Positions 3,535 to 54,951 of a stretch of DNA of 55,712 bases are shown one piece after another. Origin of the DNA: an uncultured Candidatus Saccharibacteria bacterium. GTDB lineage: Bacteria; Patescibacteriota; Minisyncoccia; Phycocordibacterales; UBA5272. Where the stretch lies: NCBI GenBank assembly GCA_964420875.1, contig CAYQUK010000002.1, positions 1 through 55,712 on the forward strand, in the 5' to 3' direction. The notes beneath the pieces were generated by a model that worked only from the letters and a program-made list of their open reading frames with translations, searched no databases and was not told where the DNA came from. The position numbers and the translations under genes are program-made. Each line of letters starts with the position of its first letter. Within the stretch, counting starts at the first letter, position 1.

Positions 3535-3552
3535 ATATAGAAATAAAAAAAA

Positions 3553-3575
3553 AGGAACCCGAGAGTTCCTTTTTT
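3553..3575. terminator. Bidirectional intrinsic terminator
   Basis: AGGAAC-ccgaga-GTTCCT stem with an A8 run upstream and a T5 run downstream, between tpiA and the convergent GC-rich gene. Confidence 0.65.
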
Positions 3576-3606
3576 GCTACAACATTTCCATGTGCAGCAC
3601 TCGCCG

Positions 3607-3978
3607 TTAGGCGCGACGTTTTTGCTTCTTGGCTTTCTTTGCCGGCGCCGCAGACTTCATCACCGCGAGGCGATAATTAGCCGCGTTCGCCGCGCGTTGC
3701 GCACGTGTTGCTTTTGCTTCAGCGTAAACAGCGCGGTTGATTGCTGCTTTTTCTGCCGCCTTAGCCTTGTCAGCTTTTGCCGCTGCCGCTTCTTCCGTTT
3801 TGGCGATCAACTGATCCTTGACCTCTGATGCGCCTTCGAGACGTGCCGCCTTGAGTTCAGCAGCGCGTGCCGCCTTCACTTCGTCATCCGAGAGGAGTGA
3901 CCACGCGTTGGCCGACGGTGCAGCAAGCGATACGAAAACTGAAACAAACAGAGCAAAGATAACTTTCTTGAGCTTCAT
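3607..3978 (-). CDS. GC-rich secreted Ala/Lys-rich coiled-coil protein (hypothetical)
   Basis: ATG at 3978 preceded by GGAGG. Signal peptide MKLKKVIFALFVSVFVSLAAPSANA followed by an Ala/Lys/Glu-rich sequence with a basic tail (KKAKKQKRRA). Local GC was 37/60 in line 3661, far above the flanks. Confidence 0.65.
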   Translation of the reverse strand: MKLKKVIFALFVSVFVSLAAPSANAWSLLSDDEVKAARAAELKAARLEGASEVKDQLIAKTEEAAAAKADKAKAAEKAAINRAVYAEAKATRAQRAANAANYRLAVMKSAAPAKKAKKQKRRA

Positions 3979-4043
3979 ACAGAACCTCCAGCAGAATGCA
4001 AAGTGACGATAATCACCTTTAACACCCACTTGTTCTGTCCAAC

Positions 4044-4072
4044 ACTCTACACCTTATTAACAATATTGTCAA
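4044..4072 (-). promoter_or_regulatory. Sigma70-type promoter for the 3607..3978 cassette
   Basis: Minus strand reads TTGACA (4072..4067), a 17-nt spacer, then TAGAGT (4049..4044) in the context aGGTGTAGAGT. It is embedded in the last codons and stop of the upstream ORF 4047..4394. Confidence 0.45.
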
Positions 4073-9521: not shown

Positions 9522-10445
9522 TTACTTCTTCTTATCGTGGAACTTTTCAAACTGGTCGCGGAGGAACTTGTTGGTGACGTTTGTATACACCTGAGTAGTG
9601 GCGATGGAGGCGTGGCCGAGCATCATCTGCACAGTACGTAGGTCAGCGCCGTTGTAGAGTAGATCAGTTGCGAATGAGTGACGCAGCACATGTGGTGTAC
9701 ACTTTTTAGATATGCCTGCGAGGGTCGCGTACTTCTCGATGACCCTCTCGATACTGCGTGTAGTCAGTCTGGTCGACTGTCCCTTTGCGATGCGACTGTG
9801 CGAGCGGGGAGAGTGATCGACGAACAGCGCCTCATCAATATCAACACGTTTGTCTATGTACTTGTTAACTGCATCCACTGCACGATCAGAGAGGAACACT
9901 ACGCGCACCTTGCCACCTTTACCACGCACTGACAGTTCACGACTAGTCATGTCCATATATCTGTCCAGCGCTGCCAACTCACTGACACGCAACCCCGTAG
10001 AAAAAAGCATCTCAAGCATCGCCATATCACGCAGTCCCGCAATGGTCGTCTGATCAGGCGCCGCCATCAATCTACCCAGCTCCTTGTCAGTGATGAGGTC
10101 TAGCTCACGACCAGGAGTCTTTGCGAGTTCTATTTTCTCTGGGTCATAGATATCTACACTACGCTTTCTCAAGTATTTAAAAAATGCACGCAGGGCAATC
10201 ATGTGATAATTCTGTGTCTTCTTGTCCAGAGTCGGACTATTCTTTCTATCGTTTGAGGGGAGGCGGTTGAGATACAGTCTGTACTCGCGCATATTACGCT
10301 CATTAATATCTGCAAAGTTTTCACTTTTTAAAAATGTTATAAATCTAGATATATAGTGATCATAGTTACGAACAGTCAAATGCGAGCGACCCTTTTCGAT
10401 CTCAATGTATTCTAAATATTCTAACTTGTACTCACTCAGTGTCAT
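9522..10445 (-). CDS. Tyrosine recombinase, XerC/XerD-like
   Basis: The ATG at 10445 gives MTLSEYKLEYLEY. It has an N-terminal SAM-like core-binding domain and catalytic-domain motifs: GLRVSELAAL, HVLRHSFAT, LGHASIATTQVYT. Confidence 0.85.
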   Translation of the reverse strand: MTLSEYKLEYLEYIEIEKGRSHLTVRNYDHYISRFITFLKSENFADINERNMREYRLYLNRLPSNDRKNSPTLDKKTQNYHMIALRAFFKYLRKRSVDIYDPEKIELAKTPGRELDLITDKELGRLMAAPDQTTIAGLRDMAMLEMLFSTGLRVSELAALDRYMDMTSRELSVRGKGGKVRVVFLSDRAVDAVNKYIDKRVDIDEALFVDHSPRSHSRIAKGQSTRLTTRSIERVIEKYATLAGISKKCTPHVLRHSFATDLLYNGADLRTVQMMLGHASIATTQVYTNVTNKFLRDQFEKFHDKKK

Positions 10446-10504
10446 GTGTATATTGTACGACATTAAAAAATAAATCCCTAGTTGAAAATAGGACAAGAAA
10501 AAAA

Positions 10505-10527
10505 GCGCCGACTTGTCGGCGCTTTTT
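10505..10527. terminator. Intrinsic terminator (bidirectional shape)
   Basis: GCGCCGA-CTTG-TCGGCGC stem with an A-run before and a T-run after, between the GC-rich gene and the recombinase gene. Confidence 0.65.
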
Positions 10528-10544
10528 GAAGTACCCAGAAACCT

Positions 10545-11408
10545 TCAGCTCACCGCATCAATTTCTGCTGACGTCATCGCGCGAATACCAGGACGAGACT
10601 CTTCCCACATGCCGACGTCGATCTCCACTGTTATCGGATCCGGTTTGGGGGACCCGTTATTGTTGAAGAAGTTTCTGGCTTGTCTGACCAGCTCCGCATA
10701 TCTCACAATACGCGCGCGCCAGTCTTCGCTAGGTAATTGATGTCGAGTAAGCATGATGAACGCCGTGTCGTCGAAATCTTGACGACTCTTGAGTAACGAT
10801 ATCGCCTCAACCAAGACCTCAGGCCGCTTTGATACGACTGAGTGGTACCATGCCGGAAGATCAAGCATTATGGCAAGCTGCTTCAGTTTTTGTAATGTAA
10901 CCTTTGGACGCACGTATACAAATCGCAATTTGCGACCAAGTGTCAGCGCCCAAATAATGCCGCGCGAGCCCCCGCGATTAAACGCTCTGTGATGACTAAT
11001 GTCAATCACAACGTGGTAATCACGCCGGAGTAGTTCTGCCGCAAGCACTGGTACTGCATAGTTAACCAGAGATTGCTTTTTCCTTTCTTGTTCAAAGTAA
11101 TTGCGCAAACGGTTGCCATCCAGCCAGACTGCGCGGTTTTTAATCGCAAGCTCCTGAGCGGCGGCACTCTTGAGCCCACATGGCGGACCCCAAAGACAGA
11201 AAACTTTCTGCTCTTCTCCCGCCTGGGTAAGGCACTCGAGAGCATCTATGTTGCGAGTATCGCGAAGCGCTGCTTGAACCCAGGCCTCGACCAAAAGGCC
11301 CCACTTCCATTTGAAGTACGGAGCCAGCACAACACCAGCCACAAATGCAATGATGTATGCCAGCCGAGTATCGGACAGCCACTTTATCAAGGAGCGAAAC
11401 TTATTCAT
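10545..11408 (-). CDS. Membrane-anchored P-loop kinase-like protein with deviant Walker A (hypothetical)
   Basis: ATG at 11408 preceded by GGAGGG. N-terminal TM (LAYIIAFVAGVVLAPYF). GPPCGLKS sits where a Walker A GxxGxGKS would be, followed by a VWLDGNRLR / HVVIDISH layout reminiscent of zeta-toxin/AAA_33-type kinases. GC was 34/60 in line 11161. Confidence 0.6.
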   Translation of the reverse strand: MNKFRSLIKWLSDTRLAYIIAFVAGVVLAPYFKWKWGLLVEAWVQAALRDTRNIDALECLTQAGEEQKVFCLWGPPCGLKSAAAQELAIKNRAVWLDGNRLRNYFEQERKKQSLVNYAVPVLAAELLRRDYHVVIDISHHRAFNRGGSRGIIWALTLGRKLRFVYVRPKVTLQKLKQLAIMLDLPAWYHSVVSKRPEVLVEAISLLKSRQDFDDTAFIMLTRHQLPSEDWRARIVRYAELVRQARNFFNNNGSPKPDPITVEIDVGMWEESRPGIRAMTSAEIDAVS

Positions 11409-11523
11409 ACGCCCTCCTAGAGCAAATAATCCAGCCTTCACACTACATCATATATATAGTTTTGTAAAGTAACAGATAAAGTGGTAGGATTAATACTGGA
11501 ACAACAACTTTTGAGAGGTTAAA

Positions 11524-40687: not shown

Positions 40688-41678
40688 GTTTTTTGCCTTG
40701 CTCGGTTAACATCCTACCTCTCGTAGTTTTTTCAATCAGTCCCATTTGCAACAGATATGGCTCGATAACGTCCTCCAATGTGTTGTCTTCTTCTGATAAC
40801 GTTGCAGCTAATGTCGATAGTCCAACCGGACCACCATCAAACTTGTCCATCAGTGCTGACAAGTATTCGCGCTCACTGTGCCCCAGTCCGTGCTCGTCTA
40901 TTTCCAACATCTCGAGTGCGGTTCGTACGGTGTCCAGGTTTAGTGGCACACCACTAACCTCCGCATAGTCACGAGCGCGTTTTAAATAGAAGTTTGCAAT
41001 GCGTGGTGTGTATCTACTACGTTTTGCTATTTCTAATGCGGCTTCCATGTTTATATTTGCCCCCAATGTCTCACTGCTACGCATTACTATTTTTGCGAGC
41101 TCTTCTAATGTGTAAAATTGTAATCTGTATGTACCACCTGAAAATCTAGATCGCAGCGGTGAAGAGAGTAGTGACACACGAGTCGTCGCTCCAACGAGAG
41201 TGAATGGGGGAATGTCTAACTGTATACTGCGTGCCGCAGGGCCCTTGCCAATTATTATGTCGAGCACACCAGACTCCATAGCAGGGTATAGCACCTCTTC
41301 TATTAATTTGTTCAGTCTGTGTATCTCATCTATAAACAACACGTCATGCGGTTGTAAGTTGGTTAATATCGCAGCCAGGTCGCCCACTTTTGTGAGAGTT
41401 GGACCAGATGTGATTTTAATATTTGTGTTCAATGTTCTCGCTATGATGTGTGCGAGTGTTGTTTTGCCGAGTCCTGGTGGACCATATAACAATATATGTT
41501 CTGGTGGTGACCCACGAGCTAGAGCCGCCTCGAGCAACACCCCAACATTTTTCTTTATGACCTCTTGCCCAATATAATATTCAAATGAAGTAGGGCGTAA
41601 GGTTGCATCTAGATGTTTTGCATCAGGGGAAGCAGATACGCCGTCTATATTTTCGTCTTCTTTTTGGGTACTTGACAT
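40671..41678 (-). CDS. ruvB: Holliday junction branch migration ATPase RuvB
   Basis: Walker A GPPGLGKTT, Walker B LFIDEIHRL, sensor GATTR, and a winged-helix C-terminus. Confidence 0.95.
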   Translation of the reverse strand: MSSTQKEDENIDGVSASPDAKHLDATLRPTSFEYYIGQEVIKKNVGVLLEAALARGSPPEHILLYGPPGLGKTTLAHIIARTLNTNIKITSGPTLTKVGDLAAILTNLQPHDVLFIDEIHRLNKLIEEVLYPAMESGVLDIIIGKGPAARSIQLDIPPFTLVGATTRVSLLSSPLRSRFSGGTYRLQFYTLEELAKIVMRSSETLGANINMEAALEIAKRSRYTPRIANFYLKRARDYAEVSGVPLNLDTVRTALEMLEIDEHGLGHSEREYLSALMDKFDGGPVGLSTLAATLSEEDNTLEDVIEPYLLQMGLIEKTTRGRMLTEQGKKHVTGK

Positions 41679-41699
41679 GAAGTTTAAATGTGTTATAAT
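41672..41699 (+). promoter_or_regulatory. Consensus sigma70-type promoter driving the candidate sRNA
   Basis: TTGACA (41672-77), 16-nt spacer, TATAAT (41694-99) with TGt just upstream. It overlaps the ruvB start codon on the opposite strand. Confidence 0.5.
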
Positions 41700-41705
41700 G
41701 GCTGG

Positions 41706-41878
41706 CAGTTAAGTTTCTAAATAGCTCACTAATCTTTAAGCAATCGGGTTTACCCATAGTTCTAATACGGAGGACGTTTTGGTTCGGATAGCATTTGTTA
41801 TCCTACTGCGGCTATCCTCATGTAGGAAATATTCTTCACCAAGGGGTTGTTTAAAGATTAATGAGCTTTTTATTTTTC
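41706..41878 (+). ncRNA. Candidate structured sRNA (rod-like, 6S-like shape; identity unknown)
   Basis: No ORF. A 23-bp closing helix pairs 41723-41745 with 41845-41867 (one C.A mismatch, two G.U). An apical hairpin GGATAGC-ATTT-GTTATCC sits at 41786-41803. The 3' arm is followed by TTTTTATTTTT. A consensus promoter lies upstream. Confidence 0.45.
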
Positions 41879-43570
41879 GTATATATCCACAACTGTTTCC
41901 AGCTCTTCTAGTGAGGTGACCCCCTCTAGCATTTTTATTATACCATCTTCGCGCATAGTGGGTATGAGTTGAGGTATTGCCACCTCGCGCAGCTCGCGCT
42001 CACCTTTTCCAGCTACCGCCGCTTCCTCTATCTCTCTTGTCATTTGTATGGCCTCAAATATTCCAATACGTCCTTTGTAGCCGTTGTGACACGCTTCACA
42101 TCCATCAGGATTTGCTGCTCCAACTTTATATATTTTTTGTGGCTGCACAGAGACCTCTTTGCCATCTGCCACCATATTGCCGAGTATGTCAGTGATAAGT
42201 TTTGATTCCTCTGTTGTTGTCTCTCTGTCTACTTTACAATGCGGGCAAAGTTTACGGCATAGGCGCTGAGCCATTACGAGGCCTATTGACGAGCCCAATG
42301 TTTTTGCATCAACTCCAAGGTCTATCATGCGAGGTATCGCTCCTGCGGCCGAGTTGGTGTGTAGGGTAGAGAGGACAATGTGACCGGTGAGCGCTGCGCT
42401 GGCTGCGACTTTTGCTGTATCTTCGTCACGTATCTCTCCCACCATTATAATGTCTGGGTCTTGGCGCAAGGCCGCGCGCAAACCGAGGAGAAATGTGTAG
42501 TCTTTTTTTGTGTCGACTTGCGTCTGTGTGATGCCGTTCATGTGATACTCTATTGGGTCCTCGATAGTGATAATTTTTTTCTCAGGTGTATAGGTTTTCT
42601 TTAGACACGCATACAAGGTTGTAGATTTACCTGATCCTGTTGGCCCAGTATTTAGTATCATGCCATATGGTTTTTTTAGGGATCTCTCAAGAAGTGAGAA
42701 AACTTTTGCATTCATACCAAGAGAGTCAAAACTAACATTCGCTGCTTTTGGATCCAATATTCTCATCACATAGTTCTCACCATAATTTCCAGGCACCAGT
42801 GATACACGCACTTCTATTTTTGCACCCTCAAACTCTATTTCAAATCTTCCATCTTGTGCTACTTTTTGAGTTGATAGTTTTAAACCAGAGAGCAGCTTGA
42901 GGCGACTATTTACCAGATTAAAAGTTTTTATATCTGTAAAGAAAACATCTTGCAACATACCGTCTATGCGATATCTGACTTTTACAGCATCATCCTCTGG
43001 CTCTATGTGTATGTCACTCACTCCAAAATGTATAGCCCCCACCAATGTCATCTCGATTATTTTTGAGACCCTCTCTCTGTTTTCATTCATCACAACCTTT
43101 TCTAGTCTAGTTCTGAACTCCGGCAGGGTGGTGATGTCTTGTAATAACTCCTTTAAATGTGACTCGTTGAGATCCACCAGACCACGCTCTGTTGTTGTCT
43201 CCGAGTCGAGGTCTTTATATCTCTGCTGCACTCTTTTGATAGAAGTTTTCGAAGCGACATATATTATTGGTTTCTCATCTCTCGTTGACACACTCGCCAA
43301 GTATTGCACCACATCATCACGAGTGGGGTCCTTTATCGCCACATGCATTTGTCTGCCAACTAGGCGGAACGGCACCAAGTCATATTTTTCAGATTCAGCC
43401 ACCGGGATTTTTGCTAACGCGTCCAACTCAGGACTTTTGATACGCAGGTCCACATAGGGGAGTCCAGATTGTTGAGCCAGGTACTCAGCCTCACGCTCCT
43501 CGTCATCACTAGCCAGTTTATCTAGACTAGTTTTGATTTTTAATTCCGCGACATCGTTTAACATAATCAA
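41870..43570 (-). CDS. PilB/GspE-family type II/IV secretion ATPase
   Basis: Walker A GPTGSGKST, Asp box, Walker B IMVGEIRD, His box LSTLHTN, and a tetracysteine motif CPHC..CEAC. Confidence 0.9.
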   Translation of the reverse strand: MIMLNDVAELKIKTSLDKLASDDEEREAEYLAQQSGLPYVDLRIKSPELDALAKIPVAESEKYDLVPFRLVGRQMHVAIKDPTRDDVVQYLASVSTRDEKPIIYVASKTSIKRVQQRYKDLDSETTTERGLVDLNESHLKELLQDITTLPEFRTRLEKVVMNENRERVSKIIEMTLVGAIHFGVSDIHIEPEDDAVKVRYRIDGMLQDVFFTDIKTFNLVNSRLKLLSGLKLSTQKVAQDGRFEIEFEGAKIEVRVSLVPGNYGENYVMRILDPKAANVSFDSLGMNAKVFSLLERSLKKPYGMILNTGPTGSGKSTTLYACLKKTYTPEKKIITIEDPIEYHMNGITQTQVDTKKDYTFLLGLRAALRQDPDIIMVGEIRDEDTAKVAASAALTGHIVLSTLHTNSAAGAIPRMIDLGVDAKTLGSSIGLVMAQRLCRKLCPHCKVDRETTTEESKLITDILGNMVADGKEVSVQPQKIYKVGAANPDGCEACHNGYKGRIGIFEAIQMTREIEEAAVAGKGERELREVAIPQLIPTMREDGIIKMLEGVTSLEELETVVDIYEK

Positions 43571-43615
43571 ATTATATACTATTTAAAACTATAGAGGCGT
43601 CAGCTCTCTACACCC

Positions 43616-43643
43616 TTGACAATATTTTATTTTCATTTAGAAT
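43616..43643 (+). promoter_or_regulatory. Promoter P1 of GC-rich cassette 1
   Basis: TTGACA (43616-21), 16 nt, TAGAAT (43638-43). Confidence 0.55.
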
Positions 43644-43693
43644 GCGTTTGGGAATATCGCGGCACCCAGCCGCATAACTATCGTGAGGTTTCT

Positions 43694-44011
43694 ATGAAAA
43701 AGCTCCTTCTTGCTGCCGTTTTGGCGGCCATCTCTTGTACGGCCTCGGCCGACTTTGTGCAGGATAAAAAGATGTCCGCACCGGTCGGCTTCGCGGTACC
43801 ATTCGAACACAAAGAGAGCGTGGTTCTCGGTCTGCTTACTGCCGAGCTCCAGTTTCCTTACGGCGATGAGCCGGTTCAAATCATCAACGGCCCCAATGGG
43901 CCTGAGTGTGAGAAGGGGCAATTGATGATTGCCCCAGACCGCCGGCTTAGCTGTAGCCAAGGCAACATCTTCGTGCTGGGTTTGAAAAAACTCCTTCCGG
44001 AACCAAAATAG
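43694..44011 (+). CDS. Small secreted protein (GC-rich cassette 1, hypothetical)
   Basis: ATG at 43694 preceded by GAGG. Signal peptide MKKLLLAAVLAAISCTASA. 105 aa with two further Cys. GC was 37/60 in line 43741. Confidence 0.65.
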   Translation: MKKLLLAAVLAAISCTASADFVQDKKMSAPVGFAVPFEHKESVVLGLLTAELQFPYGDEPVQIINGPNGPECEKGQLMIAPDRRLSCSQGNIFVLGLKKLLPEPK

Positions 44012-44033
44012 AAGCAGGGTTGTCCGGAAAAAA

Positions 44034-44056
44034 GGCTTGCCGTTGCAAGCCTTTTT
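44034..44056 (+). terminator. Intrinsic terminator of cassette 1
   Basis: GGCTTGC-cgtt-GCAAGCC stem followed by T5. Confidence 0.7.
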
Positions 44057-44081
44057 CTTATCGAGGGTTAATTTGCTGTAC

Positions 44082-44109
44082 TTGACAAACGCAGCAAATG
44101 GTGTATACT
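44082..44109 (+). promoter_or_regulatory. Promoter P2 of GC-rich cassette 2
   Basis: TTGACA (44082-87), 16 nt, TATACT (44104-09) in the context GGTGTATACT. Confidence 0.55.
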
Positions 44110-44153
44110 GTGTCTAGTATAGAAACCCGCTCAATTCTATAGGAGAAAGAGCA

Positions 44154-44552
44154 ATGTACACTAAAATTCTCGTCGCCGTTCTCGTGATTACCACACTGAT
44201 TCTGCATGGTTGTGTTGTTGTTCCGGCAAATGGGTATGGCCAAGCCGCACCACACATAACAAGCTCCAACTACGGGCGAGTCCAACCTTGTGCTCCAGGA
44301 TCCGTTGCTGTTGGACGCAACCCGAACGGGAGTCTTGTCTGTCAGTGGCAAAATCACAATGGACAACAGGGTTCTGGTCTTCCAAATGGGTGCGTGCGTA
44401 CCGTTTACGGCATGCACTGCAGCCAAGCTGACGGATACACGTTGCAGCAACCGCAAATTCCACCACGGACAAACCAACAACAAGTCCAACCAACATGTCC
44501 TAATGGTTACCGCTTGCAAAGCGTAAACGGACAACTCAGGTGTGTTCCTTAG
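44154..44552 (+). CDS. Probable lipoprotein with three Cys pairs (GC-rich cassette 2, hypothetical)
   Basis: SD AGGAG. N-terminus MYTKILVAVLVITTLILHGC is lipobox-like (LHGC). Gln/Pro/Asn/Gly-rich mature part with the paired cysteines PCAPG..LVC, NGC..MHC and TCPNG..LRC. Confidence 0.65.
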   Translation: MYTKILVAVLVITTLILHGCVVVPANGYGQAAPHITSSNYGRVQPCAPGSVAVGRNPNGSLVCQWQNHNGQQGSGLPNGCVRTVYGMHCSQADGYTLQQPQIPPRTNQQQVQPTCPNGYRLQSVNGQLRCVP

Positions 44553-44638
44553 TTTCTTGAGTGGGGTTACGGGGGAGTGATACTCCCGACAACAGCAATA
44601 TCGGCACACCTTCCCCAACGTGCCGCATTATCCCCACA

Positions 44639-44665
44639 CCGACCCCTCAAAAGGTCGGTTTTTTC
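44639..44665 (+). terminator. Intrinsic terminator of cassette 2
   Basis: CCGACC-cctcaaaa-GGTCGG stem followed by T6. Two smaller hairpins precede it in the 86-nt 3' UTR. Confidence 0.7.
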
Positions 44666-44714
44666 TTGTCTATTTTCATATTAAAAAGTAACACTTACAC
44701 CTTTTGGTCTAGTC

Positions 44715-44742
44715 TTGACAAGTTGATAAAAAGGTGTATACT
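44715..44742 (+). promoter_or_regulatory. Promoter P3 of GC-rich cassette 3
   Basis: TTGACA (44715-20), 16 nt, TATACT (44737-42) in the context GGTGTATACT. A roughly 100-nt AT-rich leader follows. Confidence 0.55.
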
Positions 44743-44853
44743 ATACAACAGAGGTTTTGAGAAATAATCTTTATTCATAAGGGTAATTTACAAAACTTTC
44801 TTTTTTAATTTTTTTTACGGTGAGATAATATCAAAAATCTGTACGGAGAAAAT

Positions 44854-45237
44854 ATGTCCACGAAAGTAGATCCTGTAGCAAAAGCTTTGTCTGCAAAGAC
44901 AGTTGCGACGGCGACTAAGGCGGTGGAGGATCTCAAATTCTCCTACTACATGCCGAAACATTTTTGGCCACTTGTGGCTCTCGGAGCCGTGGTGGTCCTT
45001 ATCATTGCTATAAATGTTTGGCAGTGGTCAACGTCCTCGGCAATCGATGACGCCCGTAAGAGCGGCATCAAAACTGGAATTGAACAGCAGGAAAAAGATG
45101 AGAAAGCAAGGGCGGTCGATGCGCAGCACAAAGCCACCCGGGAGGAGCTGTATGAGGCTCTTAAACGGCTGAGTGCTGCCGGGGGTGGTCGCCAGTCTGT
45201 TCTCAAGGACGTCGAGGTGACAGCAAAAAAGCCGTAG
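44854..45237 (+). CDS. Single-pass membrane protein (GC-rich cassette 3), zero-frame product
   Basis: SD GGAG at 44845-48. One TM (HFWPLVALGAVVVLIIAINVW), then a charged helical region. It ends at TAG 45235-37, only 4 nt after an A_AAA_AAG heptamer. Confidence 0.6.
   Translation: MSTKVDPVAKALSAKTVATATKAVEDLKFSYYMPKHFWPLVALGAVVVLIIAINVWQWSTSSAIDDARKSGIKTGIEQQEKDEKARAVDAQHKATREELYEALKRLSAAGGGRQSVLKDVEVTAKKP
45225..45231 (+). promoter_or_regulatory. A_AAA_AAG slippery heptamer (possible -1 frameshift site or homopolymer indel)
   Basis: Zero-frame codons are GCA AAA AAG, so the heptamer is in the X_XXY_YYZ register. GAGGTG lies 5 nt upstream. A CGCCT-gaggctg-AGGCG hairpin begins 6 nt downstream. 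Confidence 0.35.
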
Positions 45238-45422
45238 CGCCTGAGGCTGAGGCGGGGGAGAAAAAGTCTCCGCCACCAAAAGACTCAGGCGCATCGCCGA
45301 AAGATGCCGTAAAGGCATCTACGACAACTCCGACGCAATCAACAGCAGAAGGCGCTAAAAAGGCTGACTGCTTCAAGGTTCCGGGCTCCAAAGGTACATT
45401 CACTGGTCTTGGTGAATGTTGA
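45231..45422 (+). CDS. -1 frame continuation of cassette 3 ORF (no own start codon)
   Basis: The -1 frame is open from 45165 to TGA 45420-22 with no ATG/GTG/TTG start. It reads AVAPEAEAGEKKSPPPKDSGASPKDAVKASTTTPTQSTAEGAKKADCFKVPGSKGTFTGLGEC. The cassette terminator comes only after this segment. Confidence 0.4.
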   Translation, partial: AVAPEAEAGEKKSPPPKDSGASPKDAVKASTTTPTQSTAEGAKKADCFKVPGSKGTFTGLGEC

Positions 45423-45438
45423 ACTAAGGGTCACAAAA

Positions 45439-45470
45439 GGGTCTCGCAAAACATCGCGAGACCCTTTTTT
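45439..45470 (+). terminator. Intrinsic terminator of cassette 3
   Basis: GGGTCTCGC-aaaacatc-GCGAGACCC 9-bp stem followed by T6. Confidence 0.7.
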
Positions 45471-45495
45471 CTATATAAAATAAAGGTTAAACACC

Positions 45496-45523
45496 TTGAC
45501 AAATACTGTAAATAGTGTATACT
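45496..45523 (+). promoter_or_regulatory. Promoter P4 of GC-rich cassette 4
   Basis: TTGACA (45496-501), 16 nt, TATACT (45518-23) in the context AGTGTATACT. Confidence 0.55.
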
Positions 45524-45592
45524 GTTTACAGGCGTTCAGGAGTTAAAAACCTGAACAAAATCAGTTCACAGTACAATCACATTGGAGTTCAC

Positions 45593-46600
45593 ATGAAGAA
45601 GTTCATCGCTATGATCGCAGGCGTAATCACGCTGTTCTCTGCAGCTGCACACGCAGCCGCAGTTCAAGACTGCCGTCACGATGTGGCGCCGGTAGAAATC
45701 GGCCGCTACGCAGCCGATCAAAAGAACAACGTAATAGTGTCGGAGGAAGTGATTCCTGTCGGCTCTACCGTTACCATGTCCTATCGTGTCGGTGACGACA
45801 TGATAGGTTGGGTAACTTGCCGTACGACGAAGGTTCGTAAACATGCCACTGTCAAAGGTGGAGAGGTTTACGACATCGGTTGCGGTAATGTTGTCCGCAA
45901 GGCTGAAAAAGCTGGCGTCGTTCGTAAAGAAGAACCGGCGACCAATCTCGACATTCAACGTCCTGTTTGCGACGGAAAGTGCCAACTTGAAAAAGTTTGC
46001 GCCACTGACAACGGGGCATTGGTTGCCACCGAAGTTGGTCTGGTCTGTAAGCTGCCAAAACTCTCTATGACCTTTGAACAAGAGGTCGAGACTAACGGCA
46101 AAGTTACATGGACAGATAAGGGTTGGGTTGGCGAAAAGCATACAGTCCTAGGACCAAAGCTCGACGTCGCCATCGGCAAAACCGAAGTAAACATTTCGAA
46201 AGAGGTGTGCTACACACAAGGGTGTTCGCGCCCAGCGGCAAAGTTTGTTGCCGAAGTGAAGGCGGGATTCTGTGGCATCGTCGTCCTGAATGTTGGTCCA
46301 AAAGACAGACTGTTCGCATTCGGCAAAGCGGATCACAACGGAAAGATGGTCATGCAGATGGTCGAGCTTCAAAACTCCGACATCAAAGCAGACAAAAACA
46401 TCAATCTTGCGGGGCTGAAAGCTCGCGGGGCGACATACAAAAACGTTTCCAAGGTCGAGATTTCTCGCTTCGGAAATGATTGCGATAAGTTGCAGGAGTT
46501 CGTGGAGGGGCCATTTTGGCCAGCTTTCGCAAAAGCCTACAACTTGCCGGACGTCTGCGACAAGAAACGTATCGCCGGACCAATCGGTAAGCTCGAATAA
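45593..46600 (+). CDS. Secreted Cys-rich protein (GC-rich cassette 4, hypothetical)
   Basis: ATG at 45593 preceded by GGAG. Signal peptide MKKFIAMIAGVITLFSAAAHA. A 335-aa precursor with many cysteines and no recognisable domain. Confidence 0.7.
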   Translation: MKKFIAMIAGVITLFSAAAHAAAVQDCRHDVAPVEIGRYAADQKNNVIVSEEVIPVGSTVTMSYRVGDDMIGWVTCRTTKVRKHATVKGGEVYDIGCGNVVRKAEKAGVVRKEEPATNLDIQRPVCDGKCQLEKVCATDNGALVATEVGLVCKLPKLSMTFEQEVETNGKVTWTDKGWVGEKHTVLGPKLDVAIGKTEVNISKEVCYTQGCSRPAAKFVAEVKAGFCGIVVLNVGPKDRLFAFGKADHNGKMVMQMVELQNSDIKADKNINLAGLKARGATYKNVSKVEISRFGNDCDKLQEFVEGPFWPAFAKAYNLPDVCDKKRIAGPIGKLE

Positions 46601-46626
46601 GGAAGAGCTAATAAATTCCTAAAACC

Positions 46627-46658
46627 GACCCGGAGCGCGCAAGTGCCCCGGGTCTTTT
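46627..46658 (+). terminator. Intrinsic terminator of cassette 4
   Basis: GACCCGG..CCGGGTC outer stem with an inner GCGC/GTGC extension, followed by TTTTCT. Confidence 0.7.
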
Positions 46659-46672
46659 CTATTGTGGATAAC

Positions 46673-46702
46673 TTGACAAAAGCCTACTTAGTGTGATATA
46701 AT
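46673..46702 (+). promoter_or_regulatory. Promoter of the 817-aa surface protein gene
   Basis: TTGACA (46673-78), 18 nt, TATAAT (46697-702). A second GGTGTATAAT element sits at 46718-27. A perfect DnaA-box 9-mer TGTGGATAA (46663-71) lies 1 nt upstream of the -35. Confidence 0.5.
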
Positions 46703-46753: not shown

Positions 46754-49207
46754 ATGATAAAAAATTTACTAACAAAAAGTCGCAAAATTATTTCAATTGG
46801 AATTTTTGTGCTCACTGTTTTTGTTTCAGCTTCTAATATAACATCAGCTCAATGGAATGATGATTGGGGTATATACGACACGACAAATCAAGGTAATTAT
46901 GGAAACTGGGATAATATCAATGTTGATTTTGTTGACAATGTTTGTGGTTGGTCTACACAGTGCCCAACAAACACATCTTGGGACACAACCAATAATTGGG
47001 GTATATACGACACGACAAATCAAGGCGATTACAATACTTGGTCAAATCCTAATGTTGATTTTGTAAACCCTTATTGTAATACATATGATTGTTCTGGTAC
47101 TGTAAATCCAACATGGGTTCCACCACAAACCAATGACTATTGGAGCAATCCAGAGCCGACATTTACTGCGACCCCAAACACTTGGAATACACAGACTATA
47201 CCTAACACATACATACCAGCAAATACATACACTGGGTATACAGGATATACAACACCGAATACATACTATATAGCACCAACGAGCTATCCTACATATCGTG
47301 CACCAACATACACTACACCTACATATACCGCACCAGCGAATAACACCAACACAAACTGGTCTAACTATAACTACAACAATACAGTCAGCACCTATAATCC
47401 TGTATACAACACAAACACAACAGTAAATACAAATAACACTTGTGCTGGTCAAAACAACTGTAACAACACTTCTAATTACACATATAACAACGTTATAAAC
47501 AACAACACTACAGGTAGCTATAACAACACTACATATGTTCAGCCAACATACACACAGCCAACACCGGTGTGTACAAACGGAGCAACAAATTATCCTGGAT
47601 GTAATATCTGTCCAACTGGTCTCGTGTATACAAACGGTCACTGTGTTACAAATGTAGTAACAAACAACTGTCCTACAAACTACTACTGGAATGGTACAAG
47701 TTGTGTACCTCAAACAAAGACTTGTCCAAATGGTCAGACTGTTAGTATTTGGGATGTGTGTCCAAATCAAACACAAACATGTTGGAACGGTACAGTTATA
47801 CCAGTAACATCAGTTTGTCCAAGCCAATACAAAATCTGTCCAAATGGAACAACAGTATTGATATCACAACAGTGTTACAAGACTTGTCCAAACGGAACAA
47901 CAGTCCCAGATACACAAGTTTGTTACAGAGTGTGTCCAAACGGAACAACAGTCCCAGATACACAAATCTGTCCAACGTATAACAACTACCCGACAGTTGA
48001 TATCAACATCAACCCAAGTATAGTAAATCGTGGAGAGGGTGCCGTCCTAACATGGACAAGCCAAAACGCGACATATTGTACAGCTTCAAACGGATGGAGT
48101 GGTAATGTAAATTTACAAGGGTCAATGAACAGATCAAATCTGCTCGACACAACCGTATACACTATCACTTGTTATAATGCCCAAGGTCAATCAGCAACAG
48201 ACAGCACAACAGTAACAGTGCGTCAGAACTTGCCATCTAGTCACAGAGTTGTAACGACAGCAGTAACACAGATAACAAAGACAAGCGCTAGATGTAATGG
48301 TGTGGGGATCATATCAAATGGAGTATATTCAAATGGTTGGTTCGAATACGGCGAGACTCGTGATCTGGGTCGTGTTACAAACAGTGCCTCAATCGGTAAC
48401 TTGCCATCTTCACCATTTGGTAATCAGATAACAGGCCTCAAGGCTAATACTACATATTACTGTAGAGCGGTGATGAGTAATGCTAATGGTACATACAGAG
48501 GTGAAATAATATCATTCCGCACTACTAGCGACTCGATAACATATATACCAGTAACACCGAGCAATCCAAAGACCCCAACAAAACCTATTATATGTACAGA
48601 TGACACAGGAGCAAAAGAGTCTCTGTCTGAAGGAGAGAAATTGATGTCTATCACTCTAGAGAAAAAGTCTGGTCTGGTAGCATTAGGAGAGGTGGTAGAG
48701 TATCGTGCTCATTATCTAAATACAAGTAAGATCAAATTAACAAACGTAACCATCAAGATGGTACTGCCTAGTGAGATGACATATATCAGCAGTAACAGAG
48801 GTGTATACGATGAGAGCAACAACACAGTGGTTGCAAATCTAGACACAGTAGGGGCTGGTATGTCAGATGATCTGATTGTAAAGGTAAAAGTAAAAGACAG
48901 CGCATCTGTAAACAAATCAGCTGTAGTCAGTACATATATATCTTATGATGCACTAGACAGCAAGGGTTCATCTATTAGAGACGAGAACACTGCATATATA
49001 GTTAGCACTATAGCAGCAGCTCAAGATGAGGCTAAAAATAATACAGAAGTAACAAAGACTGACACAAAGACTAGCAATGACAGATCTTTCTTGCCTAATA
49101 CTGTATTAGAGTGGCTAGCAATCATAGCCTTGATACTGGTTCTCATTGTTCTCGGTAGATCTATATATACTGGGATAAAAGGCGAGGCGCATAAGGGTCA
49201 TCACTAA
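46754..49207 (+). CDS. Large cell-surface protein: Asn/Thr/Tyr-rich region, CPNG Cys repeats, Ig-like and DUF11-like domains, LPxTG-like C-terminal anchor
   Basis: N-terminal signal/TM. Duplicated WGIYDTTNQG units. Four CPNG(Q/T)TV repeats within a longer Cys-rich repeat series. DUF11-like segment (VVEYRAHYLNTSKIKLTNVTIKMVLPSEMTYISS). The C-terminus is LPNTV, then a hydrophobic helix, then a basic tail. Confidence 0.75.
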   Translation: MIKNLLTKSRKIISIGIFVLTVFVSASNITSAQWNDDWGIYDTTNQGNYGNWDNINVDFVDNVCGWSTQCPTNTSWDTTNNWGIYDTTNQGDYNTWSNPNVDFVNPYCNTYDCSGTVNPTWVPPQTNDYWSNPEPTFTATPNTWNTQTIPNTYIPANTYTGYTGYTTPNTYYIAPTSYPTYRAPTYTTPTYTAPANNTNTNWSNYNYNNTVSTYNPVYNTNTTVNTNNTCAGQNNCNNTSNYTYNNVINNNTTGSYNNTTYVQPTYTQPTPVCTNGATNYPGCNICPTGLVYTNGHCVTNVVTNNCPTNYYWNGTSCVPQTKTCPNGQTVSIWDVCPNQTQTCWNGTVIPVTSVCPSQYKICPNGTTVLISQQCYKTCPNGTTVPDTQVCYRVCPNGTTVPDTQICPTYNNYPTVDININPSIVNRGEGAVLTWTSQNATYCTASNGWSGNVNLQGSMNRSNLLDTTVYTITCYNAQGQSATDSTTVTVRQNLPSSHRVVTTAVTQITKTSARCNGVGIISNGVYSNGWFEYGETRDLGRVTNSASIGNLPSSPFGNQITGLKANTTYYCRAVMSNANGTYRGEIISFRTTSDSITYIPVTPSNPKTPTKPIICTDDTGAKESLSEGEKLMSITLEKKSGLVALGEVVEYRAHYLNTSKIKLTNVTIKMVLPSEMTYISSNRGVYDESNNTVVANLDTVGAGMSDDLIVKVKVKDSASVNKSAVVSTYISYDALDSKGSSIRDENTAYIVSTIAAAQDEAKNNTEVTKTDTKTSNDRSFLPNTVLEWLAIIALILVLIVLGRSIYTGIKGEAHKGHH
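46863..47025. repeat. Intragenic duplication with perfect 31-nt cores
   Basis: ATTGGGGTATATACGACACGACAAATCAAGG occurs at 46863-46893 and 46995-47025, 132 nt apart. The flanking sequence is diverged. Confidence 0.85.
47885..47965. repeat. Intragenic tandem repeat (48-nt period) with perfect 33-nt cores
   Basis: TGTCCAAACGGAACAACAGTCCCAGATACACAA occurs at 47885-47917 and 47933-47965. It encodes CPNGTTVPDTQ twice. Confidence 0.85.
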
Positions 49208-54129: not shown

Positions 54130-54144
54130 TTTTCTTTACGTTTG

Positions 54145-54217
54145 TGTCCCCAGCTGGATTCGAACCAGCGACCATCAGCTTAAAAGGCTGTTGCTCTACC
54201 GACTGAGCTATAGGGAC
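54145..54217 (-). tRNA. tRNA-Lys (anticodon UUU)
   Basis: Folded by hand from the minus strand. Acceptor GTCCCTA/TGGGGAC, D-arm GCTC-AGTCGGTA-GAGC, anticodon loop CTTTTAA, T-arm GCTGG-TTCGAAT-CCAGC, discriminator A. 73 nt. CCA is not encoded. Confidence 0.93.
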
Positions 54218-54264: not shown

Positions 54265-54292
54265 TTGACAAATGTCATATAAAGAGTAGAAT
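54265..54292 (+). promoter_or_regulatory. Promoter P6 of the tRNA-adjacent GC-rich cassette
   Basis: TTGACA (54265-70), 16 nt, TAGAAT (54287-92). A leader of roughly 125 nt precedes the ATG. Confidence 0.5.
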
Positions 54293-54423
54293 TTTAATTG
54301 GAAGATGTGGTTTTAACATGTGAGACCCATAGACCTAAACCATATCCGCACAAAGGCCTCAAAGGGCCGTTGATTCTAAAGTGATCACTCAACAATCTCC
54401 ATGCAGAGGAGTCAAATCTAACT

Positions 54424-54906
54424 ATGAATACGTTCAAGCAAAAGGCGCTGCTCTCCGCTCTGGCGGGTGCCGCCAATGCCGTTTACATCAACGGTGACGG
54501 CCCGGGCCAAGCTCAGATCTATCCGTACTACACCGTTCGCAACGGCAATCTGACGCTGCTGTCGGTCGTTAACACGACCGCAGACGCGAAGGCACTCAAA
54601 GTGCGATTCATTGAAGGCAAGAACTCGCAAGAGGTTCTCGACTTCAACTTGTTCCTCTCGTCGAAAGACGTGTGGACCGCTGCTGTGGTCGGTGACGACT
54701 ATGTGGTTATGCCTGTTGTCACCTTGGTGACGACTGACCCCGACTGCAGCAATGCAAATGTCTTGGCTACCGCAGTTGCGCCAACGACTAAACTGGATCG
54801 TATCCGTGAAGGATACGTCGAGCTGATCGAAATGGCGCAAAACAAGGCCACACAAGCAACCCGCACGCTCGCCCATCATGAGCGACCTATGATCCGGCTG
54901 GCCTGA
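54424..54906 (+). CDS. Secreted protein (GC-rich, hypothetical)
   Basis: SD GAGGAG. Signal peptide MNTFKQKALLSALAGAANA. The mature part begins VYINGDGPGQAQIYPYYTVRNGNLTLLSVVNTT. GC was 34/60 in line 54481. Confidence 0.65.
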   Translation: MNTFKQKALLSALAGAANAVYINGDGPGQAQIYPYYTVRNGNLTLLSVVNTTADAKALKVRFIEGKNSQEVLDFNLFLSSKDVWTAAVVGDDYVVMPVVTLVTTDPDCSNANVLATAVAPTTKLDRIREGYVELIEMAQNKATQATRTLAHHERPMIRLA

Positions 54907-54927
54907 TTCAGGTCAGTCGGCGAAAAG

Positions 54928-54951
54928 CCCCGACTTGTTCGGGGTTATTTT
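54928..54951 (+). terminator. Intrinsic terminator
   Basis: CCCCGA-cttgt-TCGGGG stem followed by TTATTTT. It shares the 16-nt core CCCCGACTTGTTCGGG with the terminator at 55243. Confidence 0.65.

Follow-up and report, generated by a model that had tools for sequence, protein, structure and literature searches.

A probable resident and hypervariable island of exported-protein cassettes in Candidatus Saccharibacteria with a conserved putative −1 frameshift signal

Introduction

How did four GC-rich genes for exported proteins, each equipped with its own expression signals, come to lie among ordinary genes of a Saccharibacteria chromosome, and what may their products do? The genes, whose products are called P1 to P4 here, follow one another on the plus strand between a PilB-like ATPase gene and the gene for an 817-residue DUF11/CLIPPER surface protein, in a stretch of 55,712 nucleotides (nt) of contig CAYQUK010000002.1 (this whole stretch is referred to as the window). 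An initial annotation described them as a block of foreign composition. The reading preferred here, to which a probability of roughly 60% is assigned, is that they form a resident, hypervariable envelope or secretome island of one Candidatus Saccharibacteria clade, the third gene of which carries a −1 frameshift signal. The main new result is this conserved signal, which is predicted to be of the dnaX/IS3 type and lies in a cellular gene of Saccharibacteria that encodes a membrane protein; it was missed in the initial annotation, as were the hypervariability of the island and the exchange of its cassettes.

A conserved putative frameshift signal in gene 3

The end of gene 3 reads gcA_AAA_AAG-ccg-TAG, in which a slippery heptamer stands in phase shortly before the annotated stop codon and is followed by a predicted stimulatory hairpin (Table 1). 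Read from the G of AAG in the −1 frame, the DNA encodes AVAPEAEAGEKKSPPPKDSGASPKDAVKASTTTPTQSTAEGAKKADCFKVPGSKGTFTGLGEC, which is composed of a Pro/Ala/Lys-rich linker and a terminal loop, C-FKVPGSKGTFTGLGE-C, and the predicted long form of P3 has 189 residues. This extension is part of the gene and accounts for the 200 nt between the annotated stop codon and the intrinsic terminator of unit 3; the initial description of a four-unit array was correct as to the units, but it made the third one too short. Gene 3 most probably yields two proteins, a 127-residue membrane stalk and a 189-residue form with the linker and a disulfide loop.

The arrangement was compared in eight lineages, namely that of the window and those of the loci designated L014, L009, L018, L005, L022, L015, and L017. 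The heptamer is A_AAA_AAG in the window, L014, L009, and L018, A_AAA_AAA in L005 and L022, and G_GGA_AAG in L015, always in phase, and in all eight lineages the stop codon of the 0 frame comes 0–2 codons after the site. Downstream of the site, the −1 frame is open for 42–92 codons in all eight lineages, compared with 0–1 codons in the 0 frame and 3–38 in the +1 frame, and each of the eight extensions consists of a Pro/Ala-rich linker with C-X14-27-C at the extreme C-terminus. The predicted hairpins begin 2–5 nt 3′ of the site in every lineage, with energies of −22 to −36 kcal/mol over about 60 nt (−67 kcal/mol over 108 nt in L022) and z-scores of −4.9 to −7.7 in seven of them, and their stem sequences vary from lineage to lineage. 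A GAGG or GGAGG element, a candidate stimulator, is found 5–7 nt 5′ of the heptamer in the window (7 nt), L014, L009, and L005, and GGAGC in L015; it stands closer to the heptamer than its counterpart in dnaX does, and it also codes for conserved residues. In a ninth lineage, L011, both parts of the protein are encoded by one uninterrupted open reading frame (ORF) of 273 residues that ends in ...DVCFKIIGSKGTFTGLGEC, with the same tip as that encoded by the −1 frame of the window.

Similar signals are known from other systems. In dnaX of E. coli, A_AAA_AAG and a 3′ stem-loop located 5–6 nt downstream give rise to two products, tau and gamma, in a set ratio. Gene 3 resembles dnaX in its heptamer, predicted 3′ stem-loop, and location in a chromosomal, non-mobile gene. 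An upstream GAGG-like element is present in gene 3 as well and may act as a stimulator, but this Shine-Dalgarno-like element is spaced by about 7 nt in gene 3 and by roughly 10 nt in dnaX, and the shift would lengthen P3, whereas the shifted ribosome on dnaX terminates early to give the shorter product. The −1 frameshifting is also experimentally established for the orfA-orfB junction of IS3-family elements such as IS911, IS3, and IS150. As in gene 3, A_AAA_AAG is followed there by a 0-frame stop one or two codons on and by a GC-rich hairpin a few nucleotides downstream, and the shifted product is longer and gains a C-terminal part. Even the junctions are alike (...IIKKL-stop / KKAIAPV... in the IS3 type and ...TAKKP-stop / KKAVAPE... 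in gene 3). Unlike the IS3 elements, gene 3 encodes a single-pass membrane protein to which a linker and disulfide loop, rather than a catalytic domain, would be added, and neither a transposase nor inverted repeats were found near it. For the phage tail assembly chaperones G/GT, a −1 frameshift is believed to set the proportion in which the two forms of a protein for structure or assembly are made. Gene 3, which is also short, has its predicted and conserved shift likewise close to its 3′ terminus, and a C-terminal domain would be added; however, gene 3 has no phage context and no similarity to G/GT in sequence or fold.

A pattern scan of metagenome DNA for the frameshift cassette recovered the heptamer-NNN-TAG-hairpin layout at IS3-family orfA/orfB junctions; its hits were IS3 transposases and chance matches, with no additional relatives of P3. 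An abundant IS3-family element with A_AAA_AAG CTA TAG GCGCCTG...CAGGCGC, which comes very close to the frameshift cassette of gene 3, was observed at L024, L026, L038, L050, L072, and about 30 other marine loci. To our knowledge, conserved programmed frameshifts are rare in non-mobile bacterial genes, with dnaX, copA, and cdd among the few examples, and a literature search found no report of programmed frameshifting in Saccharibacteria or Patescibacteria.

Residency and hypervariability of the island

Independent assemblies of four samples, namely three JGI metagenomes and one SRA run, contain the identical locus with its flanks. A search of 185,579 species-representative genomes gave a single match, a metagenome-assembled genome labelled uncultured Candidatus Saccharibacteria, in agreement with the episymbiont-type organism that had been suspected initially. 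The block is flanked by ruvC-ruvB-pilB on one side and by the surface-protein gene, tsaE, and polA on the other, and the gene order in relatives is dnaN, PBP, tyrS, ruvC, ruvB, pilB, small genes, P4, surface protein, tsaE, and polA. P2–P4 are present and syntenic in L005, L009, L011, and L014, and P3-like and P4-like genes are found in L018. In comparison with the closest relative, L014, the synonymous divergence (dS) of P1, P3, and P4 is 0.33–0.53, against 0.38–0.79 for the flanking genes. Independent assembly, synteny, and flank-like dS together indicate that the block is resident and as old as its surroundings.

The order of the P3-like gene, the P4-like gene, and the large surface-protein gene is kept across the clade, even in distant lineages, whereas adjacency to pilB is lost in L015, L018, and L022; one distant genome with a GC content of 0.33 retains the P3-like, P4-like, and surface proteins, tsaE, and polA without pilB. 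The link to PilB in the initial annotation is thus weak, and a role in a pilus is unsupported because pilB does not remain a neighbour over larger phylogenetic distances.

Within this stable frame, the cassettes vary strongly. Flanking proteins are 88–99% identical between the window and its relatives (from 82% in L011), whereas P2–P4 are 39–85% identical and do not rank the relatives as the flanks do: L014 has flanks of 96–99% and P4 of 74%, L011 has flanks of 82–89% and P4 of 85%, and L009 has flanks of 88–95% and P4 of 39%. The ratio of nonsynonymous to synonymous divergence (dN/dS) is 0.23–0.42 for the cassette genes against 0.01–0.06 for the flanks, and the cassette proteins change 10–30 times faster than the flanking housekeeping proteins. 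Between the window and L011, the dS of P4 is 0.59, far below the 1.5–2.9 of the flanks, and therefore the P4 cassette has moved between lineages. P1 is accessory, being present in this strain and L014 and absent from L005, L009, and L011, and the P3 genes of L011 and L005 cannot be aligned with that of the window. In L005 (11084-11767; also in L006–L008), an extra AT-rich gene for a 227-residue protein lies between P4 and the surface-protein gene, and the P2-like gene of L005 has a different N-terminus; the gene content of the island thus varies between lineages. The P4 family is modular, with its N and C domains joined to other domains in other members. Individual cassettes have accordingly been gained, lost, replaced, or exchanged between lineages, and the domains of the P4 family have been shuffled.

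Transcription units and targeting of the products

Each of the four genes is predicted to form its own transcription unit with a promoter, a Shine-Dalgarno site, and an intrinsic terminator (Table 1). All the elements that the initial annotation had ascribed to the units were located, that is, four promoters with TTGACA, a 16-nt spacer, and TATACT or TAGAAT, four Shine-Dalgarno sites that can be read directly, and four GC stems with T-runs (−11.4 to −22.4 kcal/mol). The 55.7-kb window contains nine promoter-like sites with at least 11 of 12 matching positions, where Markov simulations give 2.07 ± 1.43, and six of the nine fall within 41.67–46.70 kb, all on the plus strand. The promoter of unit 4 and the beginning of its 5′ untranslated region are kept in relatives. 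The cassette promoters share the −10 context GTGTATACTGT with the HU gene promoter of the same genome. The HU gene lies some 2 kb outside the window, to the left of position 1 (L111 7931-8206, minus strand, same strain); its promoter, TTGATT-18-TATACT, carries the cassette-like −10 context GAGTATACTGT, and its codon usage is that of the background. The cassette promoters thus appear to be near-consensus, sigma-70-type promoters in the genome's own style.

Table 1. Coordinates of the cassettes, the frameshift signal, and neighbouring features in the window
Feature	Position	Strand	Remarks
Further cassette	3550-4071 (gene 3607-3978)	minus	TTGACA-17-TAGAGT, GGTGTA context, strong terminator
PilB-like ATPase gene	41870-43570	minus	T2SSE match, E 3e-118
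Promoter, unit 1	43616..43643	+	TTGACA-16-TAGAAT
P1 gene	43694..44011	+	105 residues
Intrinsic terminator, unit 1	44026..44062 (stem 44026-44058)	+	−17.7 kcal/mol, then T-run
Promoter, unit 2	44082..44109	+	TTGACA-16-TATACT
P2 gene	44154..44552	+	132 residues
Intrinsic terminator, unit 2	44638..44668 (stem 44638-44659)	+	−11.4 kcal/mol, then T-run
Promoter, unit 3	44715..44742	+	TTGACA-16-TATACT
P3 short form, 0 frame	44854..45237	+	127 residues
Slippery heptamer A_AAA_AAG	45225..45231	+	in phase
−1-frame extension of P3 (predicted)	45231..45422	+	63 codons and TGA
0-frame stop TAG of gene 3	45235-45237	+	
Stimulatory hairpin (predicted)	45237..45292	+	56 nt; starts 5 nt past heptamer; −36.1 kcal/mol, z −6.1
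Intrinsic terminator, unit 3	45435..45474 (stem 45435-45468)	+	13-bp perfect stem, −22.4 kcal/mol, then T-run
Promoter, unit 4	45496..45523	+	TTGACA-16-TATACT
P4 gene	45593..46600	+	335 residues
Intrinsic terminator, unit 4	46627..46662 (stem 46627-46654)	+	−22.0 kcal/mol, then T-run
Shine-Dalgarno sites	GAGGT 43685-43689; GGAG 44142-44145; GGAGA 44845-44849; GGAG 45584-45587		read from sequence
DUF11/CLIPPER surface-protein gene	46754-49207	+	817 residues
tRNA-Lys(UUU)	54144-54217	minus	adjoins the cassette at 54265-54945
Further cassette	54265-54945 (gene 54424-54906)	+	TTGACA-16-TAGAAT, 130-nt leader, terminator

Export signals and transmembrane segments were judged by inspection and Kyte-Doolittle windows. 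Each of P1–P4 possesses an n-h-c Sec signal peptide with an AxA site, a lipobox L-x-G-C, or a hydrophobic span of at least 19 residues, and these proteins are predicted to be targeted outside the cytoplasm, as the initial annotation had claimed from the signal peptides of P1 and P4, the lipobox of P2, and the single transmembrane segment of P3. In a sequence comparison, the signal peptide, lipobox, and transmembrane segment were retained in orthologs. The signal peptide of P1 ends in ASA|D and is followed by a C72-C87 pair. P2 has the lipobox LHGC and then six more Cys residues; its family is highly variable, and what is kept is the lipobox and a PCAPG..GRNP.G..VC hairpin. The short form of P3 has an N-terminal cytoplasmic segment of 36 residues, a single transmembrane segment at 37–55, and a helical ectodomain. 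The alignments of P2 and P3 are shallow and very divergent. P4 is a predicted secreted protein with a signal peptide and 12 Cys residues. In its AlphaFold model, an N domain (about 25–110) and a C domain (about 213–335) both have predicted local distance difference test (pLDDT) values above 90, together with a small middle domain (about 128–153, pLDDT about 82–87) and a disordered linker. The motifs of the N domain are C-x-H-D..P, CRT, and YD..CGN, and those of the C domain are C.TQGC, CGI, DCD..Q..VE..W, and LP..C. Type IV pilins and pseudopilins, considered on account of the adjacent pilB gene, were rejected as candidates for P1–P4, none of which has a class III signal peptide (a short basic leader, G|F/M-T-L-I-E, and a hydrophobic helix).

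In the large DUF11/CLIPPER protein next to the block, the N-terminal half is repetitive and rich in Asn, Thr, and Tyr, with Cys in the repeats, and the C-terminus, with ...LPNTV, then a hydrophobic segment and a tail of basic residues, resembles a sortase-type anchor. Its length varies among assemblies of the same strain (801 or 817 residues).

The GC excess of the cassette genes

The coding GC of P1–P4 is 0.51–0.54 (z 2.9–3.6), against 0.403 ± 0.037 in 39 other genes, and the GC content at third codon positions (GC3) is 0.62, 0.44, 0.55, and 0.55, against 0.366 ± 0.064 in the same 39 genes, whereas the spacers between the cassettes are AT-rich (0.34–0.43). The GC-rich coding sequence and AT-rich promoter spacers reported initially were therefore recovered, and the counts of 37/60 (line 43741) and 19/60 (line 46801) given as examples were reproduced exactly. 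Of the measures of composition that had been proposed as a check, GC and GC3 are deviant, but the tetranucleotide deviation of the block is modest (z 1.9) and below that of the oriC region. Codons ATA, AGA/AGG, TTA, and CTA are almost never used in the cassette genes, whereas elsewhere ATA, AGA/AGG, and TTA+CTA account for 0.64, 0.54, and 0.37 of the Ile, Arg, and Leu codons; C-ending codons for Phe, Tyr, Ile, Asn, His, and Asp are preferred, and NCG and CGG codons are raised 2–15 fold. Two further cassette genes of the window (3607-3978 and 54424-54906) show a matching codon pattern, promoter type, terminator, and export signal. The cassettes therefore represent a gene class rather than the single block that was initially seen.

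The GC3 of the cassettes also exceeds the host background in other lineages, with 0.33–0.36 against 0.21–0.27 in L018, 0.38–0.41 against 0.22–0.26 in L015, 0.61 against 0.34–0.42 in L016, and 0.54–0.62 against 0.41–0.44 in L022. Since the cassettes are GC-richer than their hosts in all lineages compared, and by a similar margin, a persistent cause tied to the cassette class is indicated.

One such cause, which we consider unlikely, could be translational selection for very high expression, in which case P1–P4 would be ordinary resident genes with GC-rich codons. Near-consensus promoters, good Shine-Dalgarno sites, and strong terminators are consistent with this explanation, as are the near absence of ATA, AGA/AGG, TTA, and CTA, the preference for C-ending codons with Glu and Gln codons unchanged, and an excess that follows the background GC in other lineages. 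High expression is insufficient, however, because the genes for HU (GC3 0.32, C-ending fraction 0.36), TIM (0.43), PGK (0.39), and ClpP (0.45) lack the pattern, as does the CLIPPER surface-protein gene, which has an equally strong promoter (12/12, at 46673-46702) and yet ordinary AT-rich codon usage with a GC3 of 0.32. Furthermore, the rise in NCG and CGG codons is untypical of tRNA adaptation, and dS is no lower than in the flanks. The GC excess is thus an old property of the cassette class, and probably neither an import in recent times nor codon adaptation linked to expression explains it. The likeliest candidates for its cause are repeated exchange of cassettes within a GC-richer Saccharibacteria pool, with partial amelioration afterwards, or an enrichment in GC that accompanies recombination.

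Family and structure searches

In searches of Pfam, NCBIfam, PHROGs, and PADLOC, neither P1–P4 nor fused P3 had a match above threshold, and comparison with PDB sequences produced no credible match. No block protein was matched in INPHARED, IMG/VR, BFVD, or plasmid collections; the initial statement that none of the four belongs to a recognised family is upheld. Weak matches to EGF-like, DUF2570, ATP synthase b′, and PD-T4-6 were rejected as composition or coiled-coil bias. The structure search that had been suggested, in which the P4 model was compared with PDB and BFVD, yielded best E values of 0.58 and 0.025 and no fold assignment. Relatives are confined to the clade: for P4, 6 clusters among 5.8 billion proteins (word-index search) and 32 representatives among 1.84 billion (profile search) were found; for P3, two relatives; and for P1, itself and one ortholog. 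Scanning metagenomes with the P4 alignment returned no match, and nothing relevant was found in the literature on GC-rich secreted genes in Saccharibacteria. Of the findings that the initial annotation named as refuting its view, conservation at the locus across the lineage was observed, but the families are not well characterised.

These searches also bear on the possibility that the block is a polymorphic toxin or bacteriocin module, with P4 as a secreted modular toxin and P2 and P3 as immunity or release factors. The recombination of the P4-family N and C domains with other domains, the rapid evolution and cassette exchange, and the company of a small lipoprotein and membrane proteins speak for such a module. 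Pfam and PADLOC searches with 35 P4-family members, however, found no domain at all, and thus no toxin, immunity, or defence domain; there is no fold match, and the P4 domains are disulfide-rich and of extracellular type without an obvious catalytic motif. In addition, each gene has a separate promoter and terminator rather than being part of a toxin-immunity operon, and the gene downstream of P4 encodes the large surface protein and not a cognate immunity protein. A toxin module is therefore judged improbable.

Remaining alternatives

The break in gene 3 could in principle be a pseudogene, a sequencing error, a phase-variable poly-A tract, or a case of RNA-polymerase slippage, and six of the eight lineages do have the junction within a run of A6 or A7. 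The site is, however, identical across nine independent assemblies of three lineages (four, three, and two assemblies), which excludes a sequencing error. Together with the sites of L015 (G_GGA_AAG) and L017 (GTA_AAG), which contain A3 only, this identity also argues against phase variation and polymerase slippage. All eight lineages share one −1 configuration and none is in an 'on' state, and phase, nearby stop, and hairpin are retained even where the flanking protein has diverged beyond recognition, as in L005. Such an origin of the break is decidedly improbable, and the conserved frameshift signal is preferred.

Phage morons are prophage genes of deviant composition that form autonomous units, each with a promoter, an ORF, and a terminator. 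The cassettes, which have their own strong promoters and intrinsic terminators and a composition unlike that of their neighbours, match this textbook definition in architecture; P3 also has weak matches to DUF2570 and phrog_22015 (E about 0.002). Delivery of the units by a temperate phage, as morons or as a prophage remnant, is nevertheless very improbable, since no phage genes lie in or beside the block, which is flanked by ruvB, pilB, tsaE, and polA, the phage and viral collections gave no matches, and the chromosomal position is conserved across the clade. Unlike morons, the cassettes occupy a conserved site near oriC between housekeeping genes, with no prophage, and are inherited vertically with occasional exchange.

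The block could also be foreign, either an island gained recently or an artefact of chimeric assembly, and have brought in its own expression signals, as considered in the initial annotation. Such an origin would account for GC and GC3 values 3–4 standard deviations over background, the very different codon usage, the accessory P1, the similar cassette beside tRNA-Lys, and a GC-rich XerD-like recombinase gene elsewhere in the window; it is just as improbable and, for P2–P4, largely refuted by the same flanks in four independent assemblies, synteny in every relative recovered, dS equal to that of the flanks in the closest pair, promoters of the genome's own type, the modest tetranucleotide deviation, a search of the cassette borders in which the promoter was the sole repeat family and no recombination sites or mobility genes were found, and the lack of homologs outside the clade, in phages, or in plasmids.

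Other cassettes and elements in the window

The cassette at 3550-4071 lies between the TIM and PGK genes and encodes a 123-residue Ala/Lys-rich signal-peptide protein (GC 0.55). That at 54265-54945 encodes a 160-residue protein with a signal-like N-terminus, for which no family was found; its gene has the highest GC3 of the window (0.66) and avoids ATA, AGR, and TTA as P1–P4 do. Its position beside a tRNA gene suggests that this cassette arrived by insertion.

Between ruvB and pilB (41672-41878, plus strand), a perfect 12/12 promoter, TTGACA-16-TATAAT with TG, precedes about 170 nt of DNA that L014, L009, L011, and L005 share at almost 100% identity, even though the flanking genes are saturated at synonymous sites. 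This stretch is predicted to fold into a closing helix of about 25 bp around internal hairpins, with a terminal U-run that overlaps the pilB stop codon. It has no Rfam match at E up to 1, and Rfam gave no match anywhere in 41.6–46.8 kb; the stretch is a candidate for a new structured small RNA of the clade. At 9522-11441 on the minus strand, a XerC/XerD-like tyrosine recombinase gene and an adjacent orphan gene for a 298-residue protein have an intermediate GC3 (0.52–0.53) and an intermediate degree of rare-codon avoidance, and they may be part of a mobile element or akin to the cassette class.

Discussion

Several observations weigh against a resident island with a frameshifted gene. The site of L017 consists of A_AAG alone without a full heptamer, and the hairpin of L018 is weak (z −2.2). 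Between the window and L014, the extension (dN/dS 0.42) has 2, 8, and 6 substitutions at codon positions 1, 2, and 3, which gives no clear coding signature; these counts are based on few substitutions in a linker that evolves fast. There is hardly any shift in Lys, Glu, and Gln codons, a finding that poorly fits plain compositional import or biased gene conversion. P4 is without a structural relative, and the proposed surface or host-interface role is drawn from topology, neighbourhood, and evolutionary rate. The frameshift itself, like the promoters, terminators, and export signals, is a prediction from sequence.

A mechanism for gene 3 can be proposed with high confidence. Most ribosomes would stop at TAG and produce the 127-residue membrane stalk, and a fraction of them would slip by −1 on A_AAA_AAG, aided by the hairpin 5 nt downstream. 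The slipped ribosomes would add the 63-residue Pro/Ala/Lys-rich linker that ends in the disulfide loop, and the long form of P3 might then span the cell wall and show the loop at the surface. P2, P3, and P4 could work together with the large wall-anchored protein next to them where the cell meets a host bacterium or phages, and this exposure might drive the diversification of P2–P4. Topology, disulfides, conserved order, rapid evolution, and cassette exchange fit surface-exposed proteins selected by host or phage contact, and P1–P4 may be surface or host-interface proteins; the wall-spanning long form and the placement of P2–P4 and the large protein at a host or phage interface are put forward with low confidence. 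The island resembles the hypervariable surface loci of reduced-genome host-associated bacteria in its exported or lipid-anchored products, its high dN/dS, the replacement of alleles between lineages, and the coming and going of genes in a fixed locus. Unlike in those loci, no repeat- or invertase-mediated switching machinery was found, and the variation of the island is seen between lineages. A more speculative and rather doubtful extension is that P2, frameshifted P3, P4, and the large wall-anchored protein might constitute an undescribed host-contact apparatus, in which frameshifting would set the ratio of tip-bearing to tip-less forms and the components would be drawn from a GC-richer pool of traded cassettes.

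At least eight lineages retain the frameshift signal even though its heptamer and hairpin sequences have changed, and it would add a surface-type tip to a membrane protein; gene 3 thus offers a clean and testable case of recoding in a group with almost no molecular genetics. P4 contributes two domains predicted with high confidence that have no structural relatives. The cassettes also show that genes of outlying composition may be long-established residents, which calls for caution in GC-based calls of horizontal transfer in genomes of the Candidate Phyla Radiation. A cassette pool traded between Saccharibacteria lineages, if true, would be a chromosomal analogue of phage morons. Finally, the island places orphan, fast-evolving exported proteins beside the main surface protein, and it is at such loci that determinants of host range or phage sensitivity would be expected.

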